DNA of 64,000 nt from an uncultured Candidatus Saccharibacteria bacterium. GTDB taxonomy: Bacteria > Patescibacteriota > Saccharimonadia > Saccharimonadales > AWTP1-31. Numbering within the stretch: the stretch's first letter is position 1; each line of letters opens with the position of its first letter. Under the pieces are notes generated by a model. It was given only the letters and a program-made list of their open reading frames with translations. It did not search any database and had not been told where the DNA came from. Below, in pieces: positions 21,421-45,031 of this stretch. The stretch covers positions 1,034 through 65,033 of the forward strand of contig CALCZR010000058.1 of NCBI GenBank assembly GCA_937903325.1, in the 5' to 3' direction. Position numbers and translations under genes: made by a program.

Positions 21421-21429
21421 GTGTTAGCC

Positions 21430-25179: not shown

Positions 25180-25187
25180 TCACGAAC

Positions 25188-29640: not shown

Positions 29641-29641
29641 A

Positions 29642-30232: not shown

Positions 30233-30235
30233 ACT

Positions 30236-30565: not shown

Positions 30566-30566
30566 G

Positions 30567-31448
30567 TTATTTTTCCTCTCCAAAGCCCAAGTAGTTACCC
30601 GCATACCTCGTACCATTTAGCTCATGCCATAGCGCACAAACACCAGCGGTGTAGCTAATCGCTAATCCAAAGCTGTCTTTCTCTTCTTGTGTAAGTGGCT
30701 TGGTTGCCACTTCGTCATATCCTGAAAATAACATGTCGATAATTTCTTCTCTGGTGTAATCAGTTTCTAGGCGCATAGATAGGAAGGTGCGTGCTAAGTC
30801 AATAATGCGATAGTTATGTTCGGCTGTCTCCATATCGAACACCGCAGTTACCTCATCGCCTTCAGCAAATACATTACCGAGCCACAAGTCTCCGTGAATA
30901 AGTGTTTGTGGAAGATCGGTTTGGAACAGCTGCTCACCATCTGCGATGAGCTTTGTGATAGCTGGCTTTAGCCCACCTTCATATTTTTCAAGATCTTCAT
31001 GGACGTTCTTGGGCTGAAACCATTGCATCTTACTGAAAGGGACGTCAGTGTCCTCAAGCGCGTCGTGAAACTGTGCCAAGGTTGACCCGAAACTACGAAT
31101 AAGACCGAATGAAGCAATTTTTGGAACTTCACCTGCGATACGTTCACTTAAAGTAAAGGCCAGGCCATTGTGTTCACCGACATGCTTACCATTATCAAAC
31201 GTCAGGTAGTGAGGGGTACCAATGCCAACCTCGGCTAGTCGGTGCTGCATTTCGACTTCGCGTTCAACCGTCTCAGGAAGTTGGAGTTTAAGAATTCGCA
31301 TGACAAATTCTGTACCATTGGCAGCTCTCAAGTTATAGGCATCGTTGGCAAAAGCATCACCGTTCTTTTCACTGGCAGCCAGCTCATCGGGTGCATAGTG
31401 ATGAAACAGTTCACTGAGGTCAGGAGTGGTAAGCGGCGCCTTAGTCAT
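30567..31448 (-). CDS. aminoglycoside phosphotransferase (APH) family kinase
   Basis: Catalytic loop LIHGDLWLGN and VFDMETA (DxD-type) motifs. Confidence 0.75.
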   Translation of the reverse strand: MTKAPLTTPDLSELFHHYAPDELAASEKNGDAFANDAYNLRAANGTEFVMRILKLQLPETVEREVEMQHRLAEVGIGTPHYLTFDNGKHVGEHNGLAFTLSERIAGEVPKIASFGLIRSFGSTLAQFHDALEDTDVPFSKMQWFQPKNVHEDLEKYEGGLKPAITKLIADGEQLFQTDLPQTLIHGDLWLGNVFAEGDEVTAVFDMETAEHNYRIIDLARTFLSMRLETDYTREEIIDMLFSGYDEVATKPLTQEEKDSFGLAISYTAGVCALWHELNGTRYAGNYLGFGEEK

Positions 31449-32473: not shown

Positions 32474-32954
32474 CAGGAATCTCCTTGTTTGAGTAGTAAA
32501 CATTCGTAATCGACAAGTCACTGAGCCACTTTTGCAGAGCTTTATAAAGCTTCTCGTAGTAGCCTTGTTTGTATGCCTCTGTGGTTACCCACCAACTAGC
32601 ATCTACATCGTAGCCCAGCAGTTCCCCTGTAAGTGGTGTGCGTAGACCCATTGGGTATAGATAAAAACAGCCGATGTATGTACCAGGCATATCATAAACT
32701 GCATAAGCAAATGAGTCTCCGTCTCGAAACTCGCGTTCGTGCCAAGCAAGGTCTAGTACATCAAATTCCTCCGATACGGGTTCGGATGGCCATGTGCCGC
32801 CGCGTGTTTTTCGTATAATCTCTAGGCTGGAGTTGACCGCCTCCATGTCGGCTTTTAGGTCTGTCCGAGTTAGAGTTTTTGCCCGAAGATCTTCATACTC
32901 AAGCTCTCTCGGAGCCTGAAAGTTTAATTTTTTTGTAAGTTCTGCGTAGTTCAT
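32463..32954 (-). CDS. GNAT-like acetyltransferase family protein
   Basis: The DLAWHEREF...FAYAVY...IGCFYLYP pattern recalls a GNAT subfamily. Moderate confidence only. Confidence 0.5.
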   Translation of the reverse strand: MNYAELTKKLNFQAPRELEYEDLRAKTLTRTDLKADMEAVNSSLEIIRKTRGGTWPSEPVSEEFDVLDLAWHEREFRDGDSFAYAVYDMPGTYIGCFYLYPMGLRTPLTGELLGYDVDASWWVTTEAYKQGYYEKLYKALQKWLSDLSITNVYYSNKEIPDEN

Positions 32955-33340
32955 TACTCTAAGTTCTCGTCCAAGAACTGCTTAAGTGCTTCCATGTCTT
33001 CTTTTGTGTGGTCATAAAAATACGTTGCGATGCCTACTGATTCTGCGGTCTTGGCAGCTTCCGCACTGTGTTCAAAATAGACTACATCTTCTGGCTTGAG
33101 GCCGTATTTATCTAATAGAATCTGAAAGTATTGTGGGTCAGTCTTTTCGAGGTCATGCTTGAGGGTAAACACATCATAAGGCACTTGGTCTAGCTTGAAA
33201 TGCTTAAACTGCTCATCATTTGCACCTGTTAATACGATCTTATTGTTAGGGTAGGTTTCTAGGAGCTGGTGCATTGACTGTAAGATACTGCCATCTTCTA
33301 GAACTAAACCATTGATTGCGTCTACCAGTATTGTTTTCAT
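32954..33340 (-). CDS. HAD-like hydrolase (short form)
   Basis: N-terminal MKTILVDAINGLV (degenerate DxD motif I) and a C-terminal VYFEHS...A region. Starts at an internal ATG. Confidence 0.5.
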   Translation of the reverse strand: MKTILVDAINGLVLEDGSILQSMHQLLETYPNNKIVLTGANDEQFKHFKLDQVPYDVFTLKHDLEKTDPQYFQILLDKYGLKPEDVVYFEHSAEAAKTAESVGIATYFYDHTKEDMEALKQFLDENLE

Positions 33341-33508
33341 ACCTATAAGTATACCGTAAGATAACCACATCTATACCATTACTCTCCCATAATGCAAAAA
33401 TCGAGAGAAATCACTAACGATCTCTCCCGAAAGGCTGGAACATTTTGACTGTACCACGCTCAATTAATACAACCATGAGAGTAAAATAGTGTTAAAATCC
33501 ATTCCATT

Positions 33509-33820
33509 ATGAGTAAATCCAAAACATTCGTATTCGACGGGGGAGCCGGGACATATTGGCTCAATAGTTTTCTAGCATTCTTAATTACCATCCTTACACT
33601 AGGGATCTGCTATCCGTATGCTTTAGTCCTTAAACAACGTTGGATTGCCAATCACACGATTGTGGAGGGTAGAAGGCTAAAGTTTACGGGTACCGGAATT
33701 GGTCTTTTTGGAAACTGGATTAAGTGGCTGGTACTTATTGTCATCACTGTAGGTATTTATAGTATCTGGGTTACTCCTCGCGTTCACAGGTGGGTGGTAG
33801 AGCATACTGATTTCGCCTAA
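33509..33820 (+). CDS. DUF898 (YjgN)-like small membrane protein
   Basis: F.FDGGAGTYW...TLGICYPYA...RRLKFTGTG pattern, two TM segments. Confidence 0.5.
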   Translation: MSKSKTFVFDGGAGTYWLNSFLAFLITILTLGICYPYALVLKQRWIANHTIVEGRRLKFTGTGIGLFGNWIKWLVLIVITVGIYSIWVTPRVHRWVVEHTDFA

Positions 33821-33932
33821 AGATTTAAGAAATATTTAAGATTTAGATACATGCATACTGCTTATGTATATAATAATGTTTGTATTTGTTCAAGTTTGTG
33901 TGTTAGATTATTTACATACACGGAGGAGTACC

Positions 33933-34271
33933 ATGCGGGGTAGAAGCAAACTTAGACTAGCAGCATTTACAGTCAGCGTTTTCCAATTGGTTTATGCTCA
34001 CCCCGTCTTCGCTGCCACTGGCGGCGTAAGCAATGTAGAGAACTTTATTAAGTCCATCATTGCCGTCCTCTCTGCTATCGCCGGCCTTGTCGCAACACTA
34101 TTCCTGGTTGTTGGCGGTATCGGCTATATAACAAGCTCTGGCAATCCAGACAACCTTGACCGCGCCAAGCGAACTATTATGCACTCGCTCTACGGCTTAG
34201 CTATTGTCATCGGTGCATTCGTGGTTAGTAATATCGTTACCGAACTTGCAACAAAGGCGTTTGGGAGTTAG
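33933..34271 (+). CDS. type IV secretion pilin-like protein (VirB2 analogue, T4SS_pilin-like)
   Basis: ATG with GGAGGAG 5 nt upstream, signal peptide ending AHPVFAA, two TM helices flanking GYITSSGNPDNLDRAKR. Confidence 0.7.
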   Translation: MRGRSKLRLAAFTVSVFQLVYAHPVFAATGGVSNVENFIKSIIAVLSAIAGLVATLFLVVGGIGYITSSGNPDNLDRAKRTIMHSLYGLAIVIGAFVVSNIVTELATKAFGS

Positions 34272-34279
34272 GAACCAAG

Positions 34280-35728
34280 ATGTTGGGAATATCCGCCATG
34301 CCGCTCAGCATCATGGCCGATTCAGCGTCGGCTGCTTCCGTCATGCAAGCCTATGTTGCACCTGCCATTAGAACGCTCTGTGCCGTCGCATCAGTAGCTT
34401 GTATATTCTTCGTCATTTACGGTGGCTATAACTATATGACCAGTGCCGGTAACCCGGAGAGTCTTGCTCATGCCAAGAGAGTTATTAGGAATGCACTGCT
34501 TGGGCTTATCATTGTCATTGCTGCTGCAACACTTACCACAATCCTCACTAATGCTTACGGCGGCACTCACGTATCACAAGGCTCAAATCTACCGCAACTG
34601 CAAGCTATTGAACCAGATAAACCAAGTAATATCGTGGTGGCCGTCATTATTCGCGCCATCACTGGTGTACTTAACAATATCATCCAATCAGTCGCACAGC
34701 CCTTCTTAAGTGCCTTGTCGTATTTCACTACATCTACGGAACTTCTTGCCAAGAACTCGGCTGTCTTTAACTTGTGGCTAAGCATGGTCGGCATTACTGA
34801 TGCTTTATTTGTACTGGTAGTCGCCCTGGTTGGTTTTCATGTCATGAGTGCAACGACATTTGGTTTTGAAGAGATTGAATTCAAGCACCTATTACCTCGA
34901 CTGGCTCTTATCTTCCTGGCCATGAACACGTCAATTTTCCTCATTGACGGCATCATACAGGTCAGCAACGTCATGATTCGTGCCATTTCAGCAGCTGCCG
35001 GTGAAACTTCCATATGGAATGTATTAACGTTAGTCGTGAAACAATCTGGCAGTCAAAGCATAGCAGCACTGCTCATCATGATCGTGTTCCTCGTGTTCTC
35101 GGTCATTCTACTGGTTTACTATGTTGGACGACTGATTACCCTCTATATTGGGGCAGTCCTGTCTCCACTCGTTCTCTTAGCGTGGCTCATCCCAGGTTTT
35201 CGTGACTTTTCGGAGACTGCCGCCAAAACCTACCTAACCACCATCTTTGTACTGTTCGTACACGTCGTCATCTTGCAGCTATCCGCTTCGCTATTTATTG
35301 GTCTTGGGACGAGCGATCAGGTGCCTAACGTCTTGATGTCTATGGTAACTGGCCTTGCAACCCTAATTGCACTACTTAAAACCCAAAGTGTCATGATGCA
35401 GTTTAGCTACGTCAGCGGCGGTGCCCGCAACGCTCGTAAGCTAGGTGGCCAATTTGTAAACGGCGTTAGCCACATTACAACTCGTGGCGCAAAAGCCGCA
35501 GCCACCGTCACCGGTATTAAGAAAGTGATGTCTCGAAGCGAAGCTGGTAGCTCAAAGTCACCTACCAACAAACATTCAGATCCAAATCATACTCAACCGT
35601 TTTCAAATCGACCAAACACCAGTACCACACCTGCAAAACAAACCAACCGACCCAAGACCGGCACCACTACCAAAGCACCGAAACAATTATCTGAAGCAAA
35701 GGTTTCCAAGCCTATGGAGAAGAAATGA
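34280..35728 (+). CDS. fusion of a second pilin-like module with a polytopic VirB6/TrbL-like membrane domain
   Basis: The N terminus repeats the pilin motif (NYMTSAGNPESLAHAKR). At least 6 further TM segments follow, then a basic Thr/Pro/Lys-rich tail. Confidence 0.65.
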   Translation: MLGISAMPLSIMADSASAASVMQAYVAPAIRTLCAVASVACIFFVIYGGYNYMTSAGNPESLAHAKRVIRNALLGLIIVIAAATLTTILTNAYGGTHVSQGSNLPQLQAIEPDKPSNIVVAVIIRAITGVLNNIIQSVAQPFLSALSYFTTSTELLAKNSAVFNLWLSMVGITDALFVLVVALVGFHVMSATTFGFEEIEFKHLLPRLALIFLAMNTSIFLIDGIIQVSNVMIRAISAAAGETSIWNVLTLVVKQSGSQSIAALLIMIVFLVFSVILLVYYVGRLITLYIGAVLSPLVLLAWLIPGFRDFSETAAKTYLTTIFVLFVHVVILQLSASLFIGLGTSDQVPNVLMSMVTGLATLIALLKTQSVMMQFSYVSGGARNARKLGGQFVNGVSHITTRGAKAAATVTGIKKVMSRSEAGSSKSPTNKHSDPNHTQPFSNRPNTSTTPAKQTNRPKTGTTTKAPKQLSEAKVSKPMEKK

Positions 35729-36240
35729 AAGCAACCGTCGTCCCAGCTCAAATCACCACCATCGAAGACCGCATAGTCGGCAGCCTTGGAATGTCGCAGC
35801 TTGTGCTACTCATATTGCCAGTCATCCTTGGCGGTGGACTATTCATTGTCTTGCCGCCCACCATGCACTTAGCTCCTTACAAAATATCACTCATCGCCCT
35901 ACTAGCAGTCTTTTGTGCGACCATGTCGATCCGAATTAAAGGTCGGATCATACTACTATGGCTCGTTACGATTCTCCGCTATAACATCCGGCCTCGGTAC
36001 TACGTGTTCAACAAACGAAGTCAGCGTGGACGCGAGCAATATCTGCATGCTGTAGAACAAGAGCCGCCCAAAGAGAAAGAAACAAAGACAGTTACCAAGC
36101 TTAAAGAGTTACGCCTGAGCACCGCTGAGATTATCCAAGTCGAACGACTATTGGCCGATCCAGCAGCAAATGTTTTTTATGCAACTGACAAGAAAGGAAG
36201 ACTCAATGTCCGTATTACAGAAGTCAAACCGGAAAGCTAG
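35725..36240 (+). CDS. PrgI family (VirB3-like) T4SS membrane protein
   Basis: VPAQITTIEDRIVGSLGMSQLV followed by two TM helices. 4-nt overlap with the upstream gene. Confidence 0.65.
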   Translation: MKATVVPAQITTIEDRIVGSLGMSQLVLLILPVILGGGLFIVLPPTMHLAPYKISLIALLAVFCATMSIRIKGRIILLWLVTILRYNIRPRYYVFNKRSQRGREQYLHAVEQEPPKEKETKTVTKLKELRLSTAEIIQVERLLADPAANVFYATDKKGRLNVRITEVKPES

Positions 36241-36835
36241 CGCCCGCGACCAAATTGACATCCAAAGTGTCAAAAATGGAGTACTGATTCTGCCTGGCAA
36301 TAAATATCGAAAAGTCCTGAACGTTTCGCCAGTCAACTTTGAACTGCGCAGCGAAGACGAGCAGGATGCCATCATCGACACCTACGAAAGTTTCCTAAAC
36401 TCACTCGGTCATCCCTTACAGATTCTTATCCGCACCAGAGAACTCGATATGGATAAGTACTTAAGCGAACTCACGGACAAGCTGGCTGGTGAGGAAGTCC
36501 CTATCTACAAGCAACAACTGAAAAACTACGACGAGTTCATTAGGTCGCTCATCACCACCAACAAGATCTTATCTCGTTATTTCTACGTGATTGTGCCCTA
36601 TGACTTCACCGGTAAACTCGACTTCGACAGTATCCTAGAGCAACTTAACCTACGAGTCGATATTGTACAGAAAGGGCTGGCACGACTAGGTATGCAGTCA
36701 TCTGAACTTGGCAATCTCGAAGTGCTTGATCTGTTCTATAGCTTCTACAATCCGGAACAATCCAAGATCCAGCCGCTCACCAGTCAGGCGCTTGAATTGC
36801 TCCATACATCATTTATTAAAAAGGAGGCAGTATGA
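36206..36835 (+). CDS. VirB4-like protein, N-terminal domain encoded as a separate ORF
   Basis: The IDIQSVKNGVLIL..YRKVLNVSPVNFELRSEDEQDAIIDTYESFLNSL pattern is as at the N terminus of Gram-positive VirB4 homologues (Tn916 Orf16 / TrsE type). Confidence 0.65.
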   Translation: MSVLQKSNRKASARDQIDIQSVKNGVLILPGNKYRKVLNVSPVNFELRSEDEQDAIIDTYESFLNSLGHPLQILIRTRELDMDKYLSELTDKLAGEEVPIYKQQLKNYDEFIRSLITTNKILSRYFYVIVPYDFTGKLDFDSILEQLNLRVDIVQKGLARLGMQSSELGNLEVLDLFYSFYNPEQSKIQPLTSQALELLHTSFIKKEAV

Positions 36836-38571
36836 CCAATCCTATGACACTAGTCCGCGACTGGAAGAAACAGCGCGACGAACGACCCAAAGAATTAAGC
36901 CTGCTGTTTGGCGAGCAAGATACGACTGATTTGTTCTCCTACGCTGGACTAGAAGAACAGGCAGATTACTTATGCATTGACGGAACCTATGTCCGTACGC
37001 TATTCATTTCGGGCTATCCGTTCGTGGCAAATAGTGGCTGGCTCGATTCATTGGTCAACTTCAACCATGATGTCGATATCACGCATCACATCCACGAAGT
37101 AAATGCCCTGCAAGCATTGCCTAAGTTGCATCGTAAGATTACTGAGCTAGAAAGCACTAAACGCCAAATGATTCGGTCGGGTAAGATCGTAGGGTCTGAG
37201 ATTACCGATCCGCTTGATTCAGCCATGGAGCTACGCGACAAGATTCAGCGCGGCCAAGAAAAGTTGTTTCAAGTTTCAATCTCGGTAGCACTCCGAGCCA
37301 AAACACTACTGGAGCTCGACAAGATCACTAAGATGCTCGAAACAACGCTATCTGCACGGTTGTTCTATACCAAAGTAGCTCGCTACCAACAGCTCGAAGC
37401 CCTACAAACGGTACTTCCTAGAGGTGAAGATCAACTCAGCCAGAAACGAAACCTCGATAGTAGTTCGGCGGCCTTAACCTTTCCGTTCATGTCTTCAGAG
37501 TTAGTGCACGAATCAGGCATTCTGTATGGAGTAAACAATTCCAATAACTCACTAGTGATTCTTGATCGTTTCAGCTTACATAATGCCAACTCCATCACTT
37601 TTGCACAATCTGGTTCAGGTAAAAGCTACACGACTAAAGTTGAGATCCTGCGTCAGCTTATGCACGGCACTAAAGTAATCGTGATTGACCCCGAACGCGA
37701 ATATAAAAACCTCACGGAGTCAGTCGGCGGTACATACATCAAGCTATCTACCAGAAGCAAAGAAAAGATTAACCCCTTTGATCTTGCCTCGACATTTCAT
37801 ACCAAGAAAGACCTCTCCGAACACATCCAAGATTTGACGGAAGTAATTAGTCTGATGGCCGAGGGGCTCGACAAGCGCGAAAAGGCAGCCGTAGACAAGG
37901 CCATTCTGAAAATATATGAGGAAAGCGACCAAGGTGAGCAGCCACTGCTACAGGATCTGTACGCCGAACTGCGAGAACTTGGTCAACTTCAACTTAGTGA
38001 AAGACTAGAGAAATATATCAGCGGCTCATTGGCCGGTGTATTCAACACTGCAACCAACATTAGACTCACCAACCGGCTGATTGTTTTCGACATTAAGGAT
38101 ATGCCAAATAATCTGCGTCCAATCATGATGCTTATTATCTCTAACTTTGTGCAAAACCAAGTTAAAGCTAAGCCGGAGAAACGGCTGCTGGTCATTGACG
38201 AGGGCTGGCTACTGCTTGAGCATGAAGAAAGTGCGCGGTTTGTCGCTGGCCTCGTTCGTCGTGCTCGAAAGTACTACTTAGGCGTTGCCATCATATCTCA
38301 GCAAGCCAATGACTTCTTGCACAGCGACTATGGCCGAGCCATTGCTTCGCAAAGTGCCCTGCGTATTCTGATGCGACAAGACACCACCACTATTAAGAAT
38401 GTGGTAAGCGAGTTTAGTCTGAGTGGTTTTGAGGAAAATTACTTATTAACCTGCGGTAGAGGCGAGGCACTGATTATTGCTGACCAAAATCATGTAGCAG
38501 TCACCGTCAAAGCTAGTAACAAAGAGCATCCACTCATTACGACCGATCCGGCAGAAGTCTTTAGCCCATGA
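36832..38571 (+). CDS. VirB4-like T4SS ATPase (C-terminal ATPase part)
   Basis: Walker A QSGSGKSYTTK, Walker B LLVIDEGW, IISQQ motif. ATGA overlap with the previous ORF and its own AAGGAGG RBS. Confidence 0.88.
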   Translation: MTNPMTLVRDWKKQRDERPKELSLLFGEQDTTDLFSYAGLEEQADYLCIDGTYVRTLFISGYPFVANSGWLDSLVNFNHDVDITHHIHEVNALQALPKLHRKITELESTKRQMIRSGKIVGSEITDPLDSAMELRDKIQRGQEKLFQVSISVALRAKTLLELDKITKMLETTLSARLFYTKVARYQQLEALQTVLPRGEDQLSQKRNLDSSSAALTFPFMSSELVHESGILYGVNNSNNSLVILDRFSLHNANSITFAQSGSGKSYTTKVEILRQLMHGTKVIVIDPEREYKNLTESVGGTYIKLSTRSKEKINPFDLASTFHTKKDLSEHIQDLTEVISLMAEGLDKREKAAVDKAILKIYEESDQGEQPLLQDLYAELRELGQLQLSERLEKYISGSLAGVFNTATNIRLTNRLIVFDIKDMPNNLRPIMMLIISNFVQNQVKAKPEKRLLVIDEGWLLLEHEESARFVAGLVRRARKYYLGVAIISQQANDFLHSDYGRAIASQSALRILMRQDTTTIKNVVSEFSLSGFEENYLLTCGRGEALIIADQNHVAVTVKASNKEHPLITTDPAEVFSP

Positions 38572-39155
38572 GCCCTGTACTTCTCCTAACGTTTTCAGGA
38601 AGCATCAAAAAGCACTTCTGGGTCGCTATGGCGACACTGGTGGTTCTAGTATCCATGCCTATGATCGTTGTCATTTCGTTTGGGCAGAACGTACTGCAAT
38701 ATTTATCTGGTAGTGGCGCGGAAACTACTTACGCCATATCAACCGAAGTACAAGGGTTCTACGAAGGCCCAGAAGTTGCTGGCGATACCTACGAGTGGGG
38801 TAACTGCACGTATTGGGCTTACGCGCTACGCCTTAAAGATGGCCATCCCATTCCGACCACATGGGGCAATGCTAACACTTGGGATGACGGCGCACTGCGA
38901 GATGGATACGAAGTAAATAGCACGCCAGAAGTAGGAGCAATTTTCCAGACAGACGAAGGCAAATGGGGGCACGTAGCCTACGTCAGCGAAGTTAATGACA
39001 GTACTGGCGAGTGGAAGATATCTGAGATGAACGTAAAAGGTCGCAATGTTGTCAGTAGCCGTACGTTTGCCGCTAGCTCAGCTAAGTATTTCAACTTTAT
39101 TCATTACAAAATAGGAGACATAGCATGGAACTTCCAGCCTACGTTGCTATTGTAA
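38568..39155 (+). CDS. CHAP-domain peptidoglycan hydrolase (VirB1 functional analogue)
   Basis: N-terminal TM anchor, catalytic GNCTYWAY (Cys) and WGHVAYV (His). Confidence 0.8.
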   Translation: MSPVLLLTFSGSIKKHFWVAMATLVVLVSMPMIVVISFGQNVLQYLSGSGAETTYAISTEVQGFYEGPEVAGDTYEWGNCTYWAYALRLKDGHPIPTTWGNANTWDDGALRDGYEVNSTPEVGAIFQTDEGKWGHVAYVSEVNDSTGEWKISEMNVKGRNVVSSRTFAASSAKYFNFIHYKIGDIAWNFQPTLLL

Positions 39156-41707
39156 TGCACTACTGTTTGGTAGTGGTAATAACTTTTGGGGTACTGCTGG
39201 CAGTATATGGACTCTTCGTCGCAGTACGTCTATATCTCAACCGCAAATACCTTAAGAACCGTGAGCTTATCTGGCTAGAACTTACACCGCCAGCCACGCT
39301 TGAGAAAACACCAGAATCAACAACGCAACTTTTTTCGGTTATACATGGTTTGCGCACTGCCCGCTCTTTCAAAGATCATGTACTTAACCGTGCACCGGTA
39401 CTTGATTTTGAGATTGTATCCTCCAAGCAGGAGGGTATTCGTTATCTGGTTTGTATAGAACGGTCATGGTCAGACGTTCTCCAAAAAGCTGTAGCTGCCT
39501 ATATCCCCGATGCTAAAGTACGACCTACAGAATACACACCGTCACCGACTCAAGCCCTTATCGAGTTTAAGCAGCAACAGCATTACGTTCTGCCACTTAC
39601 CACGCCACGTAACTTCGAACAACACGACCCCTTGTCGTATGTGACGGCGGCAATGACAAAATTGAGTGATGATGAACAATTAACCATGCAACTTGTCATC
39701 ACGCCCGTAAAGCTCAGTGAAGCTACTCGGCTCTCCAAACGCATTAGGAGTAATGAAGATATCCTCCAGAAAGTTTCGCACGGGGGTATTTCCCGAATTA
39801 GTAAAGTCAGCGGCATGGTTGGTAGTGGCCTGCTGAATATGACGGATGCTATTGGCGAAACCTACCATGGGTCAACCTCCGCATATAAGCACAACGCATC
39901 GAGTCGAGATGCCGCTTTTCAGACCCAAGTACAGAAGCGCCAACGACCGGCTCGAACGCTGAGCGCCTTTGAGTTGGAGCTCATGGAGTCTATGAACCAA
40001 AAGGTCTCACAGCAACTGTTCCAGGTAAGCCTACGGATTATGACCAATGGCCAGCAAGCACACAGACAGCTTGCCGCTCTCAGGTCAGCACTGGATGGCT
40101 ACTCCATGCCACCGTACCAAGCACTAAAAGCAAAGCTACGTCTTCCACTGTTTGATGAATATCACAAAAGGTTGGCCAACAAACGACTACCAAATCTATC
40201 TCGGAAACGATCCCTAATCCTATCTGCAACCGAAGTTGCCAGCCTATATCACTTTCCGTCAACTCGAATCAGTAAAACAGATAATCTCGTCACCTCACTG
40301 AGCCGTACGCTCCCAGCTCCCATATCCCTGAAGAATAATCCTCAGCTCGATGTTATCTTGGGCGAGAATACTCACCGTGATGTTCATACACCGATTGGTT
40401 TGACTGCCGCTGAACGAGAGCGCCACATCTACATTATTGGTGGCACGGGTAACGGCAAGACCACCATGCTTCAATATGGCATCGTACAAGACATGCAGAA
40501 CGGTAAGGGACTGGCTGTTGTTGATCCCCATGGAGATATGGCCGAAACATTATTACGGCACGTGCCGGAGCACCGAATTAAAGATGTCGTGTACTTCAAC
40601 CCTGACGACATCGAACGACCAATAGGCATGAATCTCCTTGAGATCCCAGATGGTTTAAATGAGGATCAGAAAAACAAGGAAAAGGATCTTGTTACCGAAT
40701 CTCTTGTCTCCGTTTTCCGCAAAATCTTCTCCGAAGAAGATACCGGTGGTCACCGTATCGAATATGTCCTACGTAGTACGATTCAGACAGCCTTAACTGT
40801 TAAAGATGCAACAATCTTTACGATCTTTGAACTCCTCAATGATCCCGTGTATAGAACAAAGGTGGTCGCCAAACTCGATAATAAGCACCTCATCAACTTC
40901 TGGAAACACGAGCTTGGCAAAGCCGGAGACATGCAAAAGGTAAAAATGGCAGCCGGTATCACTGCTAAGATCGGCCGCTTCCTGTTCTCGGATAGTGCTA
41001 AGCGTGTTCTAGAGCAACCGAAATCAACTATAAACTTCGAGGAGATCATAGATGAAGGTAAGATCCTTATCTGCAACTTCTCGAAAGGGCTCATCGGTGA
41101 AGATACATCCGAGCTGTTCGGTATTACCGTTTTAGCCAAGCTCCAACTAGCCAGCTTACGACGTGCCCGCGTACGTCAGGGCACTCGTAAACCATTCTAT
41201 TTGTATGTTGACGAGTTCCAGAACTTTGCTACTCAATCATTCGTCCAAATGCTGAGCGAGTCACGTAAATATAAGTTATTCCTGACCATGGCCGAGCAGT
41301 CTACCTCCCAACAGAAAGATCAACGCATGGTGCAAATTGTACTTGCCAATGTGGGGACAATCCTGTGCTTCAGAACTGGTAATCCAGCGGACGAGAAGCT
41401 TCTGCTACCACTCTTTAGCCCATACATTAATGAGGGTGAAATATCCAACCAGCCGCCATTCAACTTCTATGCACGCTTTGCCTCAACAATCTCCCAGGAA
41501 CCGCTGTCTGGCAATACCATTGTTCTAGAGAGCGATGGTGATGAAACGATAGCCGAAAAAGTACGCAAAGCATCCCGAGCCACCTACGGTAACGACCCCT
41601 TGCCACAAGAAAAGCCTAGGAAAACAGCCAGCTCTGGAGACAAAGCAAAGTCGAATAACCAACGCAAAAAGACAGCGCAAGGCGACCCAGAAGATACACG
41701 CAACTAA
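39125..41707 (+). CDS. type IV coupling protein (VirD4/TraD-like ATPase) with a long N-terminal extension
   Basis: N-terminal TM, Walker A IIGGTGNGKTT, VVDPHGD, Walker B YLYVDEFQNF. An alternative ATG at 39155 overlaps the CHAP stop (TAATG). Confidence 0.8.
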   Translation: MELPAYVAIVMHYCLVVVITFGVLLAVYGLFVAVRLYLNRKYLKNRELIWLELTPPATLEKTPESTTQLFSVIHGLRTARSFKDHVLNRAPVLDFEIVSSKQEGIRYLVCIERSWSDVLQKAVAAYIPDAKVRPTEYTPSPTQALIEFKQQQHYVLPLTTPRNFEQHDPLSYVTAAMTKLSDDEQLTMQLVITPVKLSEATRLSKRIRSNEDILQKVSHGGISRISKVSGMVGSGLLNMTDAIGETYHGSTSAYKHNASSRDAAFQTQVQKRQRPARTLSAFELELMESMNQKVSQQLFQVSLRIMTNGQQAHRQLAALRSALDGYSMPPYQALKAKLRLPLFDEYHKRLANKRLPNLSRKRSLILSATEVASLYHFPSTRISKTDNLVTSLSRTLPAPISLKNNPQLDVILGENTHRDVHTPIGLTAAERERHIYIIGGTGNGKTTMLQYGIVQDMQNGKGLAVVDPHGDMAETLLRHVPEHRIKDVVYFNPDDIERPIGMNLLEIPDGLNEDQKNKEKDLVTESLVSVFRKIFSEEDTGGHRIEYVLRSTIQTALTVKDATIFTIFELLNDPVYRTKVVAKLDNKHLINFWKHELGKAGDMQKVKMAAGITAKIGRFLFSDSAKRVLEQPKSTINFEEIIDEGKILICNFSKGLIGEDTSELFGITVLAKLQLASLRRARVRQGTRKPFYLYVDEFQNFATQSFVQMLSESRKYKLFLTMAEQSTSQQKDQRMVQIVLANVGTILCFRTGNPADEKLLLPLFSPYINEGEISNQPPFNFYARFASTISQEPLSGNTIVLESDGDETIAEKVRKASRATYGNDPLPQEKPRKTASSGDKAKSNNQRKKTAQGDPEDTRN

Positions 41708-41727
41708 GAGATGGTACAATAAACTTA

Positions 41728-41940
41728 ATGAGCGACAGAGAACTAAAACAACTTGGCAATAGGATACGCGAAGTCCGTAAGAAGCGAGGGTTAACGCAAC
41801 TTGAAGTTGCTAACTTAGCAGATACCAGCTCCAACTACTTTGCTGAGATTGAGCGAGGCCAAGCCAACCCGTCCTACTCTATGCTGACAGCAATCGCAAA
41901 AGCACTCAAAGTTAAGCTGAGTGATCTAATCCCTTCTTAG
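41728..41940 (+). CDS. XRE family helix-turn-helix transcriptional regulator
   Basis: IREVRKKRGLTQLEVANLADTSSNYFAEIERG is a classic Cro/C1 HTH. Confidence 0.85.
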   Translation: MSDRELKQLGNRIREVRKKRGLTQLEVANLADTSSNYFAEIERGQANPSYSMLTAIAKALKVKLSDLIPS

Positions 41941-41996
41941 AAGCACCTCAATAAGCTTAATTAACAGAGTAGCCGTATTTTTGCTATACTTTATTC

Positions 41997-42686
41997 ATGA
42001 AATCTGTTGGAGTAATTGGCGGACTTGGTCCTGAAACAACTGCTGAGTTTTACTTGGAAGTCATTTTTCAGTGTCAAAAACGAGATGATAAGCAGCGCCC
42101 TTTAATCGTTATATCTAGCGTACCACTTCTTTTTGAAATCGAAAGAGATCTCATTGAGTCCAATACGGGCAAAGAGCGCTACATTCCGTTTCTAATAGAA
42201 GAGGCGAAGCGACTCGAAAAAAGCGGGGTCGATTTTTTGGTCATGCCCTGCAACTCGCTCCATGTTTTCATAAACGAAATCAGGAGTGCAGTTAGTATTC
42301 CTGTACTAAGCATAGTTGAAGAGACGGCCAAATATCTTAAAAAGCAGGGCTTCGGCAAAGTCGGGCTTATATCAACCTCGGCTACTGTTGCAAACAACGT
42401 CTACGAGAGCAAATTACGGGATGAAGGCATCGAGTACGTTACGCCAGATGACCTGCAACGAGCCAAAATGGATAAAATCATCCAGAGGCTCATAAATGGT
42501 CAGCACCTCAACCAAGATAGGGAGCTGATACTCGAGGTCGTCAAAGGTCTATCAACACAAGACGTAGATAGTGTCGCCTTAGCATGTACCGATCTACAGC
42601 TTCTACTTCCAAGTAGTAGCGAAGTACCGATTTTTGACACGATGAAAGTCTTAGCAGAAAGTACCGTTGACACCATTCTCTCGTAG
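41997..42686 (+). CDS. aspartate/glutamate racemase family protein (aspartate racemase-like)
   Basis: GGLGPETT, and catalytic Cys motifs MPCNSLH and LACTDL. Confidence 0.8.
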   Translation: MKSVGVIGGLGPETTAEFYLEVIFQCQKRDDKQRPLIVISSVPLLFEIERDLIESNTGKERYIPFLIEEAKRLEKSGVDFLVMPCNSLHVFINEIRSAVSIPVLSIVEETAKYLKKQGFGKVGLISTSATVANNVYESKLRDEGIEYVTPDDLQRAKMDKIIQRLINGQHLNQDRELILEVVKGLSTQDVDSVALACTDLQLLLPSSSEVPIFDTMKVLAESTVDTILS

Positions 42687-42712
42687 AGCAATGGAATTGG
42701 TATAGATACATT

Positions 42713-43357
42713 ATGAAACTCTATCTATCGTCTTACCGCATGGGCAATCACACTGAGGAACTTAAGAAGCTTGTCGGCAAAGCTAATGCTAAAGTTGCGG
42801 TGTGTGTTAACGCCAGTGATGGTTCGGATGACGTTGAACGCAAAGCAGAGGGGCTTGCCCGGGAGCTTGAGGACATGAGAAGTCTCGGCTTTGAGGCCGA
42901 GCAACTAGACTTGCGTGAGTACTTTGGCAAAAGTGGACTTGCCGAAAAGATGAAATCCTACGATCTGATCTGGGTTAGGGGTGGCAATACATTCCTGCTT
43001 GCCAAAGCATTTCGGCAGAGTGGTTTTGATAAAGTCTTTGCCGACCAAGTTGTATCTGGTGGGCTCGTATATGCTGGATACAGTGCTGCATTCTGCGTAC
43101 TTAATACTTCCTTGCGTGGCGTAGAACTTGTTGATGACAAAGACGCTCAAGCCGAAGGCTACGAGCCTGGTGAGATCTGGGAAGGGTTAGGTGTCATAGA
43201 CTTTTATCCGATAGTGCACTTTAGGTCAGATCACCATGAGTCTGAGCTTGTTGAGAAAGAATACGAGTTTGTAGTCAAAAACAATATCCCCCACAAGACG
43301 TTCAAAGATGGAGATGTATACCTAGTTAATGGTTCCAAGCAGAGAACACTTTCTTAG
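42713..43357 (+). CDS. peptidase S51 / peptidase E-like protein (second paralogue)
   Basis: IWVRGGNTFLL and AGYSAA (nucleophile Ser) motifs. Confidence 0.7.
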   Translation: MKLYLSSYRMGNHTEELKKLVGKANAKVAVCVNASDGSDDVERKAEGLARELEDMRSLGFEAEQLDLREYFGKSGLAEKMKSYDLIWVRGGNTFLLAKAFRQSGFDKVFADQVVSGGLVYAGYSAAFCVLNTSLRGVELVDDKDAQAEGYEPGEIWEGLGVIDFYPIVHFRSDHHESELVEKEYEFVVKNNIPHKTFKDGDVYLVNGSKQRTLS

Positions 43358-43391
43358 TTGCGATAGGCTGCCTACTAGTTCGTCATAGGGG

Positions 43392-43595
43392 TTAAGACTT
43401 TGTTTCCCTGTACCACTTCTCAAGTAAATCGGGATTGGTATGAGATAGCTCGTGGAAGTTGGCATACATTTCTTCTAGCTTCTTAATAGCCATTTCGGGC
43501 GTGACGGTATCTTCTGGATATACAAGCTTTAGATGTCGAATCATCTTTTCGATATCGGCTTCGTTTAGTTCGTAGTCGTCTGGTAAATCGTTCAT
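43392..43595 (-). CDS. hypothetical small acidic protein
   Basis: 67 aa. Its start lies 1 nt after the upstream PLD-like stop. Confidence 0.5.
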   Translation of the reverse strand: MNDLPDDYELNEADIEKMIRHLKLVYPEDTVTPEMAIKKLEEMYANFHELSHTNPDLLEKWYRETKS

Positions 43596-43596
43596 A

Positions 43597-44076
43597 TTAT
43601 CTCCTAGTATATCTTTTTACATTTATAAACCCTAGTAACTTATCCGCTAACTCAGCGGAGTCCGTGCGCCACATGATCTCACAGCTATCTATTTGTGACA
43701 GGATGTTAAGGCTCCCATTCCATACGATCTCTTTATCAATTACGGCAAGTTTGCGATGATGCCGAGCCGTGTAGAATACCTCCACCCCGATAGACTGTAG
43801 AGCTGCTATCGCATTGAGCGCCTGAACTTCGTATTCCTCATTATGCTCAATAGGATCACGAGTATTGACGATGATCGACACACCTCTGCTACGCAAACGT
43901 GAGAGCAATGGGAATAATGCATTAATTCGGTTCGTTGTGATGAAGGGACACTCAATAACCACTTCGTTTTGAGCAAATCGTAAGTCCTCTTCAAAAGCTC
44001 TGTAGAATGACTCCTGATCGTACATTTGGACATGACCACTAGGTACACTCCTGATGCGTCGAAATATGTTTAGCAT
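43597..44076 (-). CDS. phospholipase D-like (HKD) domain protein, Nuc-type candidate nuclease
   Basis: A single HxK(x)4D motif (HHRKLAVID) followed by NGSLN. About 160 aa, as in single-HKD nucleases. Confidence 0.75.
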   Translation of the reverse strand: MLNIFRRIRSVPSGHVQMYDQESFYRAFEEDLRFAQNEVVIECPFITTNRINALFPLLSRLRSRGVSIIVNTRDPIEHNEEYEVQALNAIAALQSIGVEVFYTARHHRKLAVIDKEIVWNGSLNILSQIDSCEIMWRTDSAELADKLLGFINVKRYTRR

Positions 44077-44231
44077 ACATCGCCCTCCTCGTAGATAAGC
44101 TTGCCATCTATATCGTGTACACCAAGTCTTCTGAGGTTGTGCGCTAAGTCAATAAGTGATTGAATAAGGGTATCTGTTATTTCTAGGTGCTGTGGATAAG
44201 TGTTCGCAACTGCACCCTCCCACCTAGCCAA
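44070..44231 (-). other. 53-codon open frame entering repeat A; candidate displaced native 3' end of the recombinase gene or a small CDS
   Basis: Open from TTG GCT AGG TGG GAG... to a TAA that overlaps the PLD-like ATG (GTATGCTAA). It has the same codon register across GCT AGG as the recombinase ORF across the tRNA. Confidence 0.35.
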
Positions 44232-44233
44232 AC
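44131..44233. repeat. direct repeat copy A, ending in a tRNA-Gln 3'-end-like core (candidate attR)
   Basis: CCCTCCCACCTAGCCA (44215-44230) versus the tRNA CCCTCCGCCCTAGCCA (16708-16723), 14/16 by hand. Roughly three-quarters identical to copy B over about 103 nt, ungapped. Confidence 0.6.
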
Positions 44234-44237
44234 TGAG

Positions 44238-44264
44238 AACCCATCGAAAGATGGGTTTTTTGTT
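44238..44264 (+). terminator. orphan plus-strand intrinsic terminator directly after repeat A
   Basis: AACCCATC-GAAA-GATGGGTT followed by TTTTTTGTTT. No plus-strand gene upstream. Confidence 0.7.
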
Positions 44265-44286
44265 TAGGACAGATCATTCTTATAAT

Positions 44287-44802
44287 CTACTGTGTAGCTT
44301 GTCGAATTCGATCAATTAGACTCAGAACGTCTACAGGTCCGTAGCCATAGCCAGCATCAGAGCTCATACCATCCTGCTTGAATGATGCAGTACCCCAGCC
44401 TCCACTCGGTAGTTGACTGACTATATCTACAGAGCATCTACCATGATCTGCAAATACTGACTGGTTCATTGTGCCACCCAAAGATACCCTAACAATTGTA
44501 GGAGTTTGGGATCCATAAATTGCTGCAGATGCTACTGAAAATATTGGATATTCTAAGCCACTAGCTTCTACTAAACGTTCGGCATCGCCCTCTGGCAACC
44601 ACGGGAAAGGCGCGGTCAGTACGGTAGTTGGATGTTCCGCATTATCGCTGAATCCGCCCATAGGTCCTTGGCGCCAATTACCTAATACGGCTTCATCATA
44701 ACCTTCTCGTCCTATTAGCTCATTACCTAACTCTTGTAGCCCTACTGCTTCTGGGCAAAGACCAATATCTAGCTTTGAAATCACTGTACAGCTCCTAAAC
44801 AA
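44287..44802 (-). CDS. hypothetical protein
   Basis: 171-codon ORF (TTG start, GTG alternative 6 codons in) between the two repeats. No family recognised. Confidence 0.45.
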   Translation of the reverse strand: MFRSCTVISKLDIGLCPEAVGLQELGNELIGREGYDEAVLGNWRQGPMGGFSDNAEHPTTVLTAPFPWLPEGDAERLVEASGLEYPIFSVASAAIYGSQTPTIVRVSLGGTMNQSVFADHGRCSVDIVSQLPSGGWGTASFKQDGMSSDAGYGYGPVDVLSLIDRIRQATQ

Positions 44803-44895
44803 CTTCTTAATATATAGTATTATTCAATAAACAAAATAAAATGTAAAGTCATATCTCTGAATAGTCATGTACTCTCATTGAGTATACTGAAACTC

Positions 44896-44998
44896 CTGAG
44901 CTCGTATGCCAACTTTATAAGTGATTGAACCAGCCTATCTGACACTTCAAAATCTTGTGGAAAAGTGTTCGAATTTACACCCTACCACCTAGCCAAAG
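44896..44998. repeat. direct repeat copy B (more degenerate tRNA 3'-end-like core)
   Basis: GTTCGAAT + TTACA + CCCTACCACCTAGCCA (core 44980-44995, 13/16 to the tRNA end). The frame homologous to copy A is interrupted by TAG. Confidence 0.6.
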
Positions 44999-45004
44999 TA
45001 AAAC

Positions 45005-45031
45005 GATCACCGTTTGGTGGTCATTTTATTT
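45005..45031. terminator. intrinsic terminator after repeat B, usable from both strands
   Basis: GATCACC-GTTT-GGTGGTC followed by ATTTTATTT. The reverse strand has GTTTTACTTT after the hairpin. It lies just downstream of the 45053..45949 gene. Confidence 0.6.

Follow-up and report, generated by a model that had tools for sequence, protein, structure and literature searches.

The question raised by this locus is why two similar stretches of DNA lie in direct orientation downstream of a tRNA-Gln gene in the window, that is, the whole stretch of 64,000 nucleotides analysed. It is likely, with a probability of roughly 0.78, that both are the cut-off 3' ends of large serine recombinase (LSR) genes, copy A belonging to a 27.5-kb element inserted at the CCA end of tRNA-Gln and copy B being the fossil of a relative.

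44112..44232, no strand assigned: repeat copy A (direct-repeat search of the window)
44877..44997, no strand assigned: repeat copy B, probably the truncated fossil of a second element's end (direct-repeat search; alignment to the tail family)

A sequence-only reading had described direct repeats of about 100 nt and about three-quarters identity, 765 nt apart, and the repeat is real. In the direct-repeat search of the 64-kb window, the two copies form one repeat family of 121 nt, ungapped, with 72% identity and a spacing of 765, and no other direct repeat in the window comes close to the pair in length; BLASTN aligns 105 nt of it at 74.3% identity (E 1.4e-11). All four conserved blocks listed in that reading are found in the sequence, its minus-strand peptides are correct, and the 20-mer CACCCT[C/A]CCACCTAGCCAAA is common to both copies and occurs nowhere else, 0.01 matches being expected by chance.

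The nature of copy A becomes clear from the mobile element that it bounds and from the tRNA gene at the other end of that element.

16649..16723, plus strand: tRNA-Gln(UUG) (ARAGORN and Rfam)
16724..44230 (about 16.72-44.23 kb), no strand assigned: integrative conjugative element of ~27.5 kb (Pfam; near-identical DNA in other samples)

By Pfam, the element carries an LSR, a Replic_Relax/MobC-like protein, cargo genes, a type IV secretion cluster, a coupling protein, an XRE regulator and a PLD-like gene. The type IV secretion matches are VirB4-like, TrbL-like, pilin, CHAP and coupling protein. Secretion genes, coupling protein and a candidate relaxase thus lie between defined ends, as in an integrative conjugative element, the relaxase being a weak match (Replic_Relax at 26.2 bits against a cut-off of 25.3; MobC subfamily at E 0.001). 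On the right, L002-L004 (99.7-99.8% identical) and L006 (88%) follow the window as far as ...CCTAGCCAA, after which all similarity ends and the other samples continue into unrelated flanks, so that copy A sits exactly at the end of a tRNA-Gln-anchored mobile element, as had been proposed. On the left, three junctions diverge immediately after ...CATATGGCT on the minus strand. In sample SRR20818728 the element, at 99.7-99.8% identity, lies at tRNA-Gln(CUG) with other flanks on both sides, a context confirmed at the DNA level by L024; the same element is therefore found at two sites, tRNA-Gln(UUG) in the window and tRNA-Gln(CUG) in that sample. The samples in which the element occurs are those of ENA assemblies ERZ650304, ERZ650252 and ERZ650287 and of runs SRR6231139, SRR20818728 and SRR14092360. 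The junction core is very short. The left junction reads ..[T/C]AGCCA|TATGACC and the right one ..TAGCCA|A[A/G].., which have AGCCA only in common, and the crossover falls inside AGCCA at the end of tRNA-Gln (16719-16723). A short core without long direct repeats fits an LSR element.

16614..18392, minus strand: LSR gene in its integrated form, 592 aa (Pfam Resolvase, Recombinase and Zn_ribbon_recom; translation)

The LSR adjoining tRNA-Gln is the sole recombinase that Pfam finds among the ORFs of the element, and no ORF in 16.7-44.2 kb has a phage-integrase-family match. The Resolvase catalytic domain (PF00239, E 6.7e-10) and the Recombinase domain (PF07508, E 3.4e-7) are matched, and the zinc-ribbon domain (PF13408) is seen below the cut-off at E 0.0019. 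Element DNA encodes the protein as far as ...PEGHM, the codon for Ala558 belongs to the shared crossover core, and antisense tRNA-Gln and host DNA supply the final 34 codons and the stop codon. The LSR has no stop codon of its own, and its frame crosses the junction into antisense tRNA-Gln in three hosts. P0010, P0011 and P0012, which fall in one 90% cluster, are near-identical up to ...FLAQFRPEGHMA and differ only after ...EGHMA, from where they read RAEGFEPP.., GDEGFEPP.. and GAAGIEP.., respectively, the antisense of three different tRNA-Gln genes. The family is large (1391 homologues at E <= 1e-10), and an antisense T-loop peptide stands at the end of 96 of the 122 homologues examined, again with no stop codon ahead of the junction. 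Some of the homologues lie on long contigs (P0016 and P0027 on 41 kb each, P0030 on 29 kb). One close relative, 71% identical, is labelled Candidatus Saccharibacteria, and this source name is the only ground on which the window is assigned to Patescibacteria.

The missing end of this reading frame is found 27.5 kb away, in copy A.

44070..44231, minus strand: detached 3' end of the LSR frame, 53 codons (ORF list; frame comparison at GCT AGG; tail family; L021)
43597..44076, minus strand: PLD-like (PLDc_2) gene (Pfam; sequence)

The LSR reads CAT ATG GCT AGG and the tail reads TTG GCT AGG, which is one continuous frame. In ATGCTAA, the start codon of the PLD-like gene and the stop codon of the tail ORF overlap. 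Copy A therefore combines the element-side half of the attachment site with the C-terminal coding end that was detached from the LSR. The joined arrangement is seen in L021, whose genes are homologous to both ends of the window element and run in the order Replic_Relax(-), LSR(+), PLDc_2(+), small ORF, XRE(-), coupling protein. There, an LSR ORF of 602 aa runs uninterrupted through ATGGTGACCTCT..., a pseudo-tRNA arm and a tail of 44-45 aa, and its stop codon lies 2 nt ahead of the ATG of a PLD-like gene homologous to the one that follows copy A in the window. Identity to the reconstructed query is 46% for the L021 LSR, and the other five genes show 24-42% identity to the corresponding genes of the window; the tails of L021 and the window match at E about 5 by BLAST alone, which is not significant. 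That the sole fused example is only 46% identical is counted against the main reading. Among close relatives, LSR and tail were not seen fused in one protein: the 90% cluster holds split forms only, and the tail profile matched no protein of ~600 aa. Similarly, BLAST of the tail against 119 LSR homologues gave no significant match to the tail proper. A match of P0018 to the tail query (E 2.6e-6) was set aside, as it came from the shared LSR end and the tRNA-like arm, and P0120 and P0077, LSRs with non-tRNA tails, were rejected as a second joined example, no PLD gene following them. The AlphaFold2 model of an uninterrupted relative, P0071, is confident over residues 1-550; its tail (555-602) has pLDDT below 50 and is uninformative on tail structure, because most alignment rows carry antisense-tRNA peptide there.

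A word-based search with the 53-aa tail returned two proteins only, and a profile search against 1.84 billion representative proteins yielded at least 15 homologues, all of them small ORFs of 40-128 aa. Their consensus is [LM]A[RG].EG..SNT.P..FEVTD.LIQSLI.LA..LRRLG.RD..G.L.YEE. Similarity begins exactly at the crossover, and the sequences upstream are unrelated, as a split gene predicts. These same homologues may be read in another way: the module of ~50 aa could be an independent small protein of the element, such as a directionality factor or the partner of the PLD-like nuclease, whose NTG start codon is made by the crossover, with copies A and B as paralogues. To our knowledge, recombination directionality factors have no common sequence signature. 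That every database homologue is a short ORF, several of them starting M-A-R/G, that the tail stop and the PLD start overlap, as they do in coupled genes, that close relatives show split forms only and that the first codon is always NTG, TGG being the reverse complement of CCA, would all suit such a protein. On the other hand, the module has no Shine-Dalgarno sequence, a terminator hairpin lies directly upstream of it, and its start codon would have to come from host DNA. In addition, in none of the contexts does the LSR have its own stop codon, and its frame is that of the module; the position of the module is part of the 602-aa LSR ORF in L021, and the similarity of the tails sets in precisely at the crossover. 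An independent small protein is therefore considered unlikely, and the tail is more probably translated as part of the LSR in the window element.

The same family bears on how the differences between copies A and B should be read. They had been called mostly conservative in the minus-strand frame. The pairwise alignment and dN/dS-style comparison that had been suggested give weak support for this from the two copies alone: differences fall 15:5:14 on the three codon positions, a BLOSUM permutation test gives P = 0.04, and the NG86 dN/dS of 0.59 is a marginal coding signal. This weak pairwise signal is counted against the main reading. Firm support for the claim comes once 13 more homologous tails are aligned. 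If the repeat is the detached 3' end of a recombinase reading frame, conservative changes are to be expected, and the conserved nucleotide blocks are indeed the codons of IQSLI, TD and NT[YF]PQ plus the half-site. Over its first 89 nt, copy A shows 100% identity between the window and L006, while the adjacent PLD gene differs at 16% of sites; this conservation at the DNA level exceeds coding constraint alone and also counts against the main reading.

Perfect conservation over 89 nt would suit an RNA, and the repeat might be a plus-strand small RNA of ~100 nt ending at a terminator, for example an antisense regulator of the start of an opposite-strand gene. A plus-strand terminator follows each copy, and upstream of copy B the same strand has a weak promoter-like site (44796-44823). 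However, no equivalent promoter lies upstream of copy A, there is no Rfam match even at E = 1, and the conservation across 15 homologues is protein-like. Outside the terminator stem, only two double-sided changes are seen, which from two sequences are indistinguishable from chance. A small RNA is thus highly improbable as the explanation of the repeat.

The outermost part of each copy resembles the 3' end of the tRNA gene.

44200..44230, plus strand: element-side (P) half-site of copy A, GTGTTCGCAACTGCACCCTCCCACCTAGCCA (read from the sequence)
44965..44995, plus strand: element-side (P) half-site of copy B, GTGTTCGAATTTACACCCTACCACCTAGCCA (read from the sequence)

The host-side (B) half-site is formed by the last ~26 nt of tRNA-Gln(UUG), in the order GGGTTCGAAT then CCCTCCGCCCTAGCCA. 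The copies read GTGTTCG[C/A]A[A/T], then 5 nt, then CCCT[C/A]CCACCTAGCCA. Compared with the tRNA 3' end, copy A matches at 7/10 positions of the outer block and 14/16 of the inner block with 5 extra nt between them, and copy B matches at 9/10 and 13/16 with the same 5-nt insertion. The outer motif GTTCGAA therefore lies 5 bp farther from the crossover in the copies than in the tRNA. In the LI integrase system, the zinc-ribbon-domain motif is 5 bp closer to the centre in attB than in attP (PMC3783163), and the left half-sites of copies A and B show this same attP/attB offset. The ...CCACCTAGCCA arm belongs to the element and mimics the 3' end of the tRNA gene with 5 nt inserted. Dyad symmetry is not significant in the reconstructed attP and attB, the best centres, CA and CC, scoring 9/26 positions against a null maximum of about 11.6 and thus no better than shuffled sequence; this is counted against the main reading.

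Arms that end ...CCTAGCCA like the tRNA, downstream of it and in the same orientation, could also be displaced 3' fragments of tRNA-Gln left by tyrosine-integrase islands. Genuine tRNA-Gln fragments of 24 nt and 18 nt do occur beyond the element in L006. In the window, however, no displaced fragment identical to the 3' part of the tRNA is found at the far end: the arms are not tRNA sequence, given the 5-nt insertion and the 2-3 mismatches of the inner block, and the arm accompanies the element into a host with a tRNA ending ...CCCCAGCCA. A tyrosine recombinase is absent from the element, and the common core is AGCCA only. Displaced tRNA fragments are thus an extremely improbable origin of the copies. 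The sequence-only proposal of tandem accretion at a tRNA site stands in part: two ends in the same orientation are present, and the classical tRNA-fragment signature of tyrosine integrases is absent.

Copy B had been taken for an older, decayed version of the same junction, and it does prove to be a second, degraded example of the same kind of element end: it matches the tail family, carries an internal stop codon and has lost about 18 codons.

44982..44984, minus strand: in-frame TAG (read at 44984-44982) at the fifth codon of the copy B tail, where copy A has GAG; an in-frame TAG in copy B had been noted in the sequence-only reading

Copy B leaves the family alignment after ...LAYELR, its last ~18 codons being lost. 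Over 29 aligned residues, it is identical to P0161, P0163 and P0164 at 21/29, 20/29 and 19/29 positions, respectively, and to copy A at 16/29. Copy B is closer to the tails of other elements than to copy A, which points to a different element. With two copies 765 nt apart in the same orientation and with the same layout of arm and hairpin, a local duplication of the copy A junction that later diverged, with no second element, would be another account. It would, however, have to place almost all of the 28% divergence on copy B, the 89 nt of copy A being unchanged while the PLD gene differs by 16%. The differences between A and B moreover spare second codon positions, as if both copies had evolved while coding, and the hairpins differ in sequence. 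A local duplication is accordingly very unlikely, and copy B, judged by its sequence, is probably a truncated fossil left by a different, related element.

A hairpin and a T-run had been reported after each copy, and both are present on the plus strand, 8-9 nt downstream.

44239..44265 (stem 44239-44256), plus strand: hairpin A and T-run, resembling a tRNA-Gln terminator (sequence)
45005..45031 (stem 45005-45022), plus strand: hairpin B and T-run, terminator-like (sequence, terminator scan)

The terminator scanner flags hairpin B only; hairpin A is evident from the sequence itself. The stems are unlike in sequence but keep their pairing, including 3 compensatory pairs. A near-identical hairpin lies by the element end in L006 and a different one in L002-L004, and hairpin A is common to the window and L006 although the DNA beyond differs. 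Both hairpins have the appearance of tRNA terminators and would lie on the host side of the junctions, although hairpin A may be either host or remnant DNA.

Based on these results, the following mechanism may be proposed. The LSR gene would contain its own attP, within its 3' end. Once the element is excised as a circle, the LSR frame would read ...PEGH-M-A-R-W-E-G... across attP, through the pseudo-tRNA arm and into the conserved tail of ~50 aa, and the uninterrupted frame would stop on the ATG of the PLD-like gene, giving a predicted fused LSR of 609 aa compared with 592 aa in the integrated form. The predicted junction of the circle is GCACCCTCCCACCTAGCCATATGACCTTCGGGTCGAAATTG, joining ...CCCACCTAGCCA to TATGACCTTCGG..., and the predicted unoccupied site is GAATCCCTCCGCCCTAGCCAAACTGAGAACCCATCGAAAG. 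Integration would cut the LSR gene within AGCCA; the body of the gene would stay by the tRNA and read into its antisense strand, and the arm and tail would be displaced 27.5 kb away to become copy A. The likeness of the outermost 31 nt of the copies to the tRNA 3' end would then stem from the binding of both by one recombinase, and the next ~90 nt would be conserved because they code for the tail. Copy B would be the arm and tail of a different element lineage, left by an earlier integration and inactivated by the stop codon and the loss of ~18 codons. Serine integrases reportedly recombine no pairing other than attP x attB (PMC3783163). The arrival of a second element beside the remnant of the first, for which the mechanism does not account, is counted against the main reading.

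Neither viral_contigs nor the 24 fetched loci contained the predicted circular junction, which is counted against the main reading, and a scan of viral_contigs with the element arm and the PLD protein gave nothing useful. The TTGGCTAGGTGGNAGGGTG pattern, searched in genome_contigs and metagenome_contigs, gave chance matches only (an IgG4 Fc contaminant and three unrelated contigs). An empty tRNA-Gln site, the lack of which is likewise counted against the main reading, was not seen either, every contig with host flank genes being occupied; exact look-ups of the host flank proteins (a sigma factor and a D-Ala-D-Ala carboxypeptidase) returned occupied loci only. One locus, L009, terminates in Illumina adapter sequence.

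An attP within an integrase gene has precedents. In phage Mx8 of Myxococcus xanthus, attP lies inside the integrase gene and integration gives it a new 3' end (PMC6070905), and the integrases of Mx8 and of SSV-type archaeal viruses are named as ones that 'extend across attP' (PMC4383910). The window element resembles them in having attP within its recombinase gene, which would gain a new 3' end on integration. However, the Mx8 and SSV enzymes are tyrosine recombinases, whereas that of the window element is an LSR in which a conserved tail of ~50 aa would be exchanged for an antisense-tRNA peptide of variable length. With the Listeria LI/A118 integrases, the element shares short sites, a tiny core, the same half-site motifs and the 5-bp offset between the copy A and B arms and the tRNA; it differs in that the target is the CCA end of a tRNA, attP overlaps the recombinase frame and the pattern is seen in the left half-sites only. 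As in Islander/TIGER islands, an element lies by an intact tRNA with more than one tRNA-like end in the same orientation downstream, but here the tRNA is not duplicated and the tRNA-like end is element DNA. In the accretion of streptococcal ICEs and CIMEs, an intact ICE lies beside a remnant that keeps an att end and lacks recombination and transfer genes; these elements use tyrosine integrases and have true direct repeats. The window similarly holds an intact element by a short remnant, with the difference that only one remnant end, copy B, is recognisable. In the integration-dependent immunity of mycobacteriophage BPs, attP lies within the repressor gene, and integration alters the C-terminus of the protein. 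Here, the altered gene is that of the recombinase instead of the repressor, and any functional consequence of the swap is hypothetical.

Reference work on tRNA islands knows of no serine-family integrase that has a tRNA gene as its target (PMC4383910). The LSR family described here, in contrast, does target tRNA genes, at the CCA end, with its attachment site in its own coding sequence, an arrangement otherwise known for the tyrosine integrases of Mx8 and SSV (PMC6070905, PMC4383910). Full-text literature searches found no paper describing this combination of LSR, tRNA target and attP in the recombinase gene, which is no proof that it is undescribed. For annotation, recombinase ORFs ending ..G[FIL]EP.. 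read into a tRNA, and since such a gene has its true 3' end at the opposite side of the element, both ends of these elements can be mapped from sequence alone. The two C-termini of the recombinase, set by the integration state, would amount to a natural experiment on directionality. A broader scheme is tentatively suggested, one that we regard as possible but doubtful: in a family of LSRs with attP in the 3' end of their own genes and a pseudo-tRNA arm directing them to tRNA CCA ends, the swap of the ~50-aa module would report whether the element is free or integrated and help to set the direction of recombination, orphan modules would mark past integrations and perhaps serve as alternative excision ends, and the same elements would carry the type IV secretion clusters that in Patescibacteria have been taken for non-conjugative systems of the chromosome. 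In a survey, the type IV secretion clusters of Patescibacteria were mostly without relaxases, and non-conjugative roles were suggested (PMC12102498). The cluster in the window appears, from the comparison of loci, to move as a unit between two tRNA-Gln genes.

The segment between the two copies had been proposed as a remnant of an earlier element, together with the ORF that it contains.

44287..44802, minus strand: ORF of 171 aa, 165 aa from the GTG at 44784 (ORF list)
44819..44847, minus strand: promoter-like site upstream of the 171-aa ORF, TTTACA, 17-nt spacer, AATAAT (10/12 consensus positions, a consensus match only)

The ORF has no match in Pfam, NCBIfam, PHROGs or PDB. A check for homologues on related elements, which had been suggested, returned five at 60-99% identity; the three contexts read (L017, L018 and L019, of which L018 and L019 carry the same homologue, P0006) hold no element genes and no B-like repeat. 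No left end of an older remnant is recognisable in the window, and successive integrations are a proposed origin of the tandem arrangement. The tRNA-Gln 3' fragments of 24 nt and 18 nt in L006 are stacked beyond the element end, which fits a site that has been hit repeatedly. Downstream of a single tRNA, at least two ends in the same orientation are therefore seen in both loci, as in an accretion array: copies A and B in the window, and the element end and the two fragments in L006.

By a direct-repeat search of the window, copies A and B were recovered as a single family that aligns without gaps over 121 nt at 72% identity with a spacing of 765 nt, and the pair is by far the longest direct repeat of the window. 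BLASTN aligned the copies over 105 nt at 74.3% identity (E 1.4e-11), and a 20-mer common to both has 2 occurrences against 0.01 expected by chance. Each copy ends in ...CC[A/C]CCACCTAGCCA and is followed, 8-9 nt farther on, by a plus-strand hairpin and T-run; the stems of hairpins A and B differ in sequence, with the pairing kept. The sequence-only reading, which had described the repeat and both hairpins, is borne out on these points, and its minus-strand peptides and in-frame TAG in copy B were quoted correctly. It had also considered the minus-strand differences mostly conservative; in a pairwise comparison, they fall 15:5:14 over the three codon positions (permutation test, P = 0.04; dN/dS 0.59), and the coding signal of the A/B pair alone is marginal. 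The nucleotide blocks that it had singled out correspond to the half-site and to the codons for IQSLI, TD and NT[YF]PQ. The features concerned are as follows.

16614-18392, minus strand: large serine recombinase gene (LSR)
16649-16723: tRNA-Gln(UUG)
about 16724-44230: the element, ~27.5 kb
18759-19592: Replic_Relax/MobC-like gene, the relaxase candidate
21430-22890, 30567-31448, 24493-25179 and 41997-43357: cargo, namely a GNAT-APH fusion, a second APH-family kinase, two Peptidase S51 genes and an Asp/Glu racemase
33500-41707: type IV cluster (also in contigs L001-L004 and L024), with pilin, TrbL-like, PrgI-like, TraC-like, VirB4-like, CHAP and coupling protein genes
44112-44232: copy A
44287-44802, minus strand: 171-aa ORF
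44877-44997: copy B

By comparing junctions between contigs, copy A is identified as the end of a mobile element. The LSR, which adjoins tRNA-Gln(UUG) and reads toward it, has Resolvase, Recombinase and zinc-ribbon matches; from there to 44.2 kb lie the Replic_Relax/MobC-like gene, cargo, the type IV secretion cluster, the coupling protein, an XRE regulator and a PLD-like gene, and no tyrosine recombinase is present in the element. On the minus strand, copy A immediately precedes the PLD-like gene, and the stop codon of its 53-codon ORF (the tail) overlaps the PLD ATG. Exact-protein look-ups retrieved contigs with the same element, of which L002, L003 and L004 are the same DNA as the window at 99.7-99.8% identity. 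At the right end, the window and these contigs match up to ...CCTAGCCAA, after which the hairpin of L002-L004 differs and the genes are unrelated; in L006, a more distant variant at 88% identity, the match stops at this very position. At the left end, three near-identical LSR copies (one 90%-identity cluster) part after ...FLAQFRPEGHMA and continue as RAEGFEPP..., GDEGFEPP... and GAAGIEP..., antisense readings of the 3' ends of three different tRNA-Gln genes. In L024, from the same sample as L002, the element adjoins tRNA-Gln(CUG) at the DNA level. From the junction comparison, the crossover falls within AGCCA, where the tRNA ends in CCA. Searches for an excised junction in viral_contigs and the fetched loci, and for an empty tRNA-Gln site among contigs with the host flank genes, gave none.

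The type IV secretion cluster belongs to the element and is found at two different tRNA-Gln genes with 99.7-99.8% identity. According to a 2025 survey, type IV systems of Patescibacteria mostly lack relaxases, and non-conjugation roles have been suggested for them (PMC12102498). The GNAT-APH fusion and the second APH-family kinase could be antibiotic modifiers.

In every context, the LSR reaches the junction without a stop codon, and an antisense T-loop peptide forms the C-terminal end in 96 of the 122 LSR family members examined. Relative to the core, the LSR (CAT ATG GCT AGG) and the 53-codon ORF (TTG GCT AGG) have the same frame, which implies that the LSR would run into copy A in an excised circle; translation would pass through the copy and end on the PLD start, with a predicted product of 609 aa. 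This uninterrupted arrangement is displayed by one family member, on a relative's contig (L021), where an LSR ORF of 602 aa crosses a pseudo-tRNA arm and a 44-aa tail and ends 2 nt before the PLD ATG. The gene order there is Replic_Relax(-), LSR(+), PLDc_2(+), small ORF, XRE(-) and coupling protein, and all of these have homologues at the ends of the window element, with identities of 46% to the reconstructed query for the LSR and of 24-42% to the window counterparts for the five other genes. The 87-kb contig also has a 92-nt tRNA-Asn call at 5711-5802 and methylase, OLD-like nuclease and helicase genes at 1-5076. Long C-terminal extensions occur in the family members P0031 (747 aa) and P0120 (739 aa); that of P0120 is low-complexity and acidic, following a WNTENYP motif that resembles the motif of the tails, and in L022 its gene is followed by uncharacterised genes in place of a PLD gene.

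With a tail profile made from copies A and B and protein P0002, 1.84 billion representative proteins were searched, and at least 15 small ORFs of 40-128 aa were found, with the consensus [LM]A[RG].EG..SNT.P..FEVTD.LIQSLI.LA..LRRLG.RD..G.L.YEE. In the aligned tails, similarity begins precisely at the crossover, with unrelated residues upstream of it. Judged by this alignment, the tail is a conserved protein module. The AlphaFold2 model of the uninterrupted LSR relative P0071 is confident to about residue 550 and not in the tail. At the element end, 89 nt (window 44143-44231, L006 427-515) are 100% identical; in the PLD genes beside them 16% of sites differ, mostly at third codon positions (8:3:31). 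The DNA-level conservation of these first 89 nt of copy A exceeds what a ~30-nt half-site plus coding constraint predict, and reflects either a recent exchange of the segment or a constraint on the DNA that reaches far past an ordinary serine-integrase half-site.

The tRNA 3' end consists of GGGTTCGAAT followed by CCCTCCGCCCTAGCCA. In both copies, the arm reads GTGTTCG[C/A]A[A/T], five extra bases and CCCT[C/A]CCACCTAGCCA.

Matches of the arm of each copy to the tRNA
Copy A: outer block 7/10; inner block 14/16
Copy B: outer block 9/10; inner block 13/16

For the Listeria LI integrase, the zinc-ribbon-domain motif lies 5 bp nearer the centre in attB than in attP (PMC3783163), and the offset between arm and tRNA agrees with this rule. 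The best reading of the arm is thus the element-side half-site, with its tRNA likeness predicted to come from one protein binding both; a displaced piece of tRNA was rejected. No significant dyad symmetry was found in the reconstructed sites, and of the half-sites only the left-hand ones were defined.

Copy B matches the tail family between the crossover and ...LAYELR, beyond which the resemblance ends and the last ~18 residues are missing; a TAG stands at codon 5. It shares 21/29, 20/29 and 19/29 residues with tails of other elements vs 16/29 with copy A, which assigns it to another lineage of the element family and led us to reject an origin by duplication of copy A. Neither an LSR nor a transfer gene nor a left end accompanies copy B, and tblastn with five tails gave no further tail copies in the window or any fetched locus. 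Because it lies farther from the tRNA than the intact element, copy B is most simply an older, decayed insertion. The second, decayed junction proposed from sequence is thus supported by the tail-family match, the TAG and the lost residues; on the other hand, the classical tRNA-island picture does not hold, as the recombinase is of the serine, not the tyrosine, type and the arm is not displaced tRNA.

The intervening 171-aa ORF, regarded earlier as a remnant of such an element, has a promoter-like site of its own and no match to a recognisable family in Pfam, NCBIfam, PHROGs or PDB. Five homologues were found, and the three readable contexts (L017, L018 and L019, with P0006 in both of the latter) contain neither element genes nor a B-like repeat; the ORF, like the DNA between the copies in general, may or may not derive from the older element.

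Stacking of the same kind as copies A and B is seen in L006, where a hairpin beyond the element end is followed by exact tRNA-Gln 3'-end fragments in the same orientation, one of 24 nt (242-265) with its own hairpin and T-run and then one of 18 nt (71-88). These look like scars of other insertions at the site, possibly by a different kind of element. Serine integrases are reported to act on attP x attB alone (PMC3783163); this restriction leaves the insertion of a new element beside an old one without explanation. Hairpin A (window 44239-44265) is nearly identical in L006 (396-425), the DNA beyond being unrelated, and L002-L004 carry a different hairpin in its place. It looks like an intact tRNA terminator, either that of the host or part of a remnant; with its recurrence in L006, this suggests that the recombinase side of the old element may already have been lost.

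In L002 (7550-9700; also L003 and L004), another, unrelated serine recombinase of 430 or 392 aa with its own stop codon and terminator lies beside the right end of the element, in the host with tRNA-Gln(CUG). An Asp/Glu racemase gene precedes it, and such a gene is also among the element cargo. A decayed tRNA-like fragment, TGGCTGGGGATGAGGGATTTACGACCC, lies ~80 nt beyond the stop of this recombinase, and from this point an ORF stays open for 131 codons into copy A.

Integrase genes extending across attP are known from Mx8 and SSV (PMC4383910; PMC6070905); these are tyrosine recombinases, whereas the present enzyme is a large serine recombinase. By the account of the Islander paper (PMC4383910), no serine-family integrase is known to use a tRNA gene as its target. 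In full-text literature searches, no LSR was found described that acts at the CCA end of a tRNA and has attP within its own 3' end, which is absence of evidence only. We class the element as conjugative and of the serine-integrase kind, carrying a pseudo-tRNA arm and a recombinase gene split by integration.

Two comparison contigs contain artefacts. In L013 (NZ_JALKBC010000051.1, Arenibacter sp. F26102, 1504 bp), the sequence codes for the Fc region of a human IgG4 whose hinge carries S228P (ESKYGPPCPPCP ... LSLSLGK), and a NotI-like GCGGCCGC site comes after it; the scaffold is almost certainly a laboratory contaminant in the assembly. L009 terminates in Illumina adapter sequence at 2353-2401 (AGATCGGAAGAGCGTCGTGTAGGGAAAGAGTGT), so that the point at 44785 where it seems to part from the window is artefactual.
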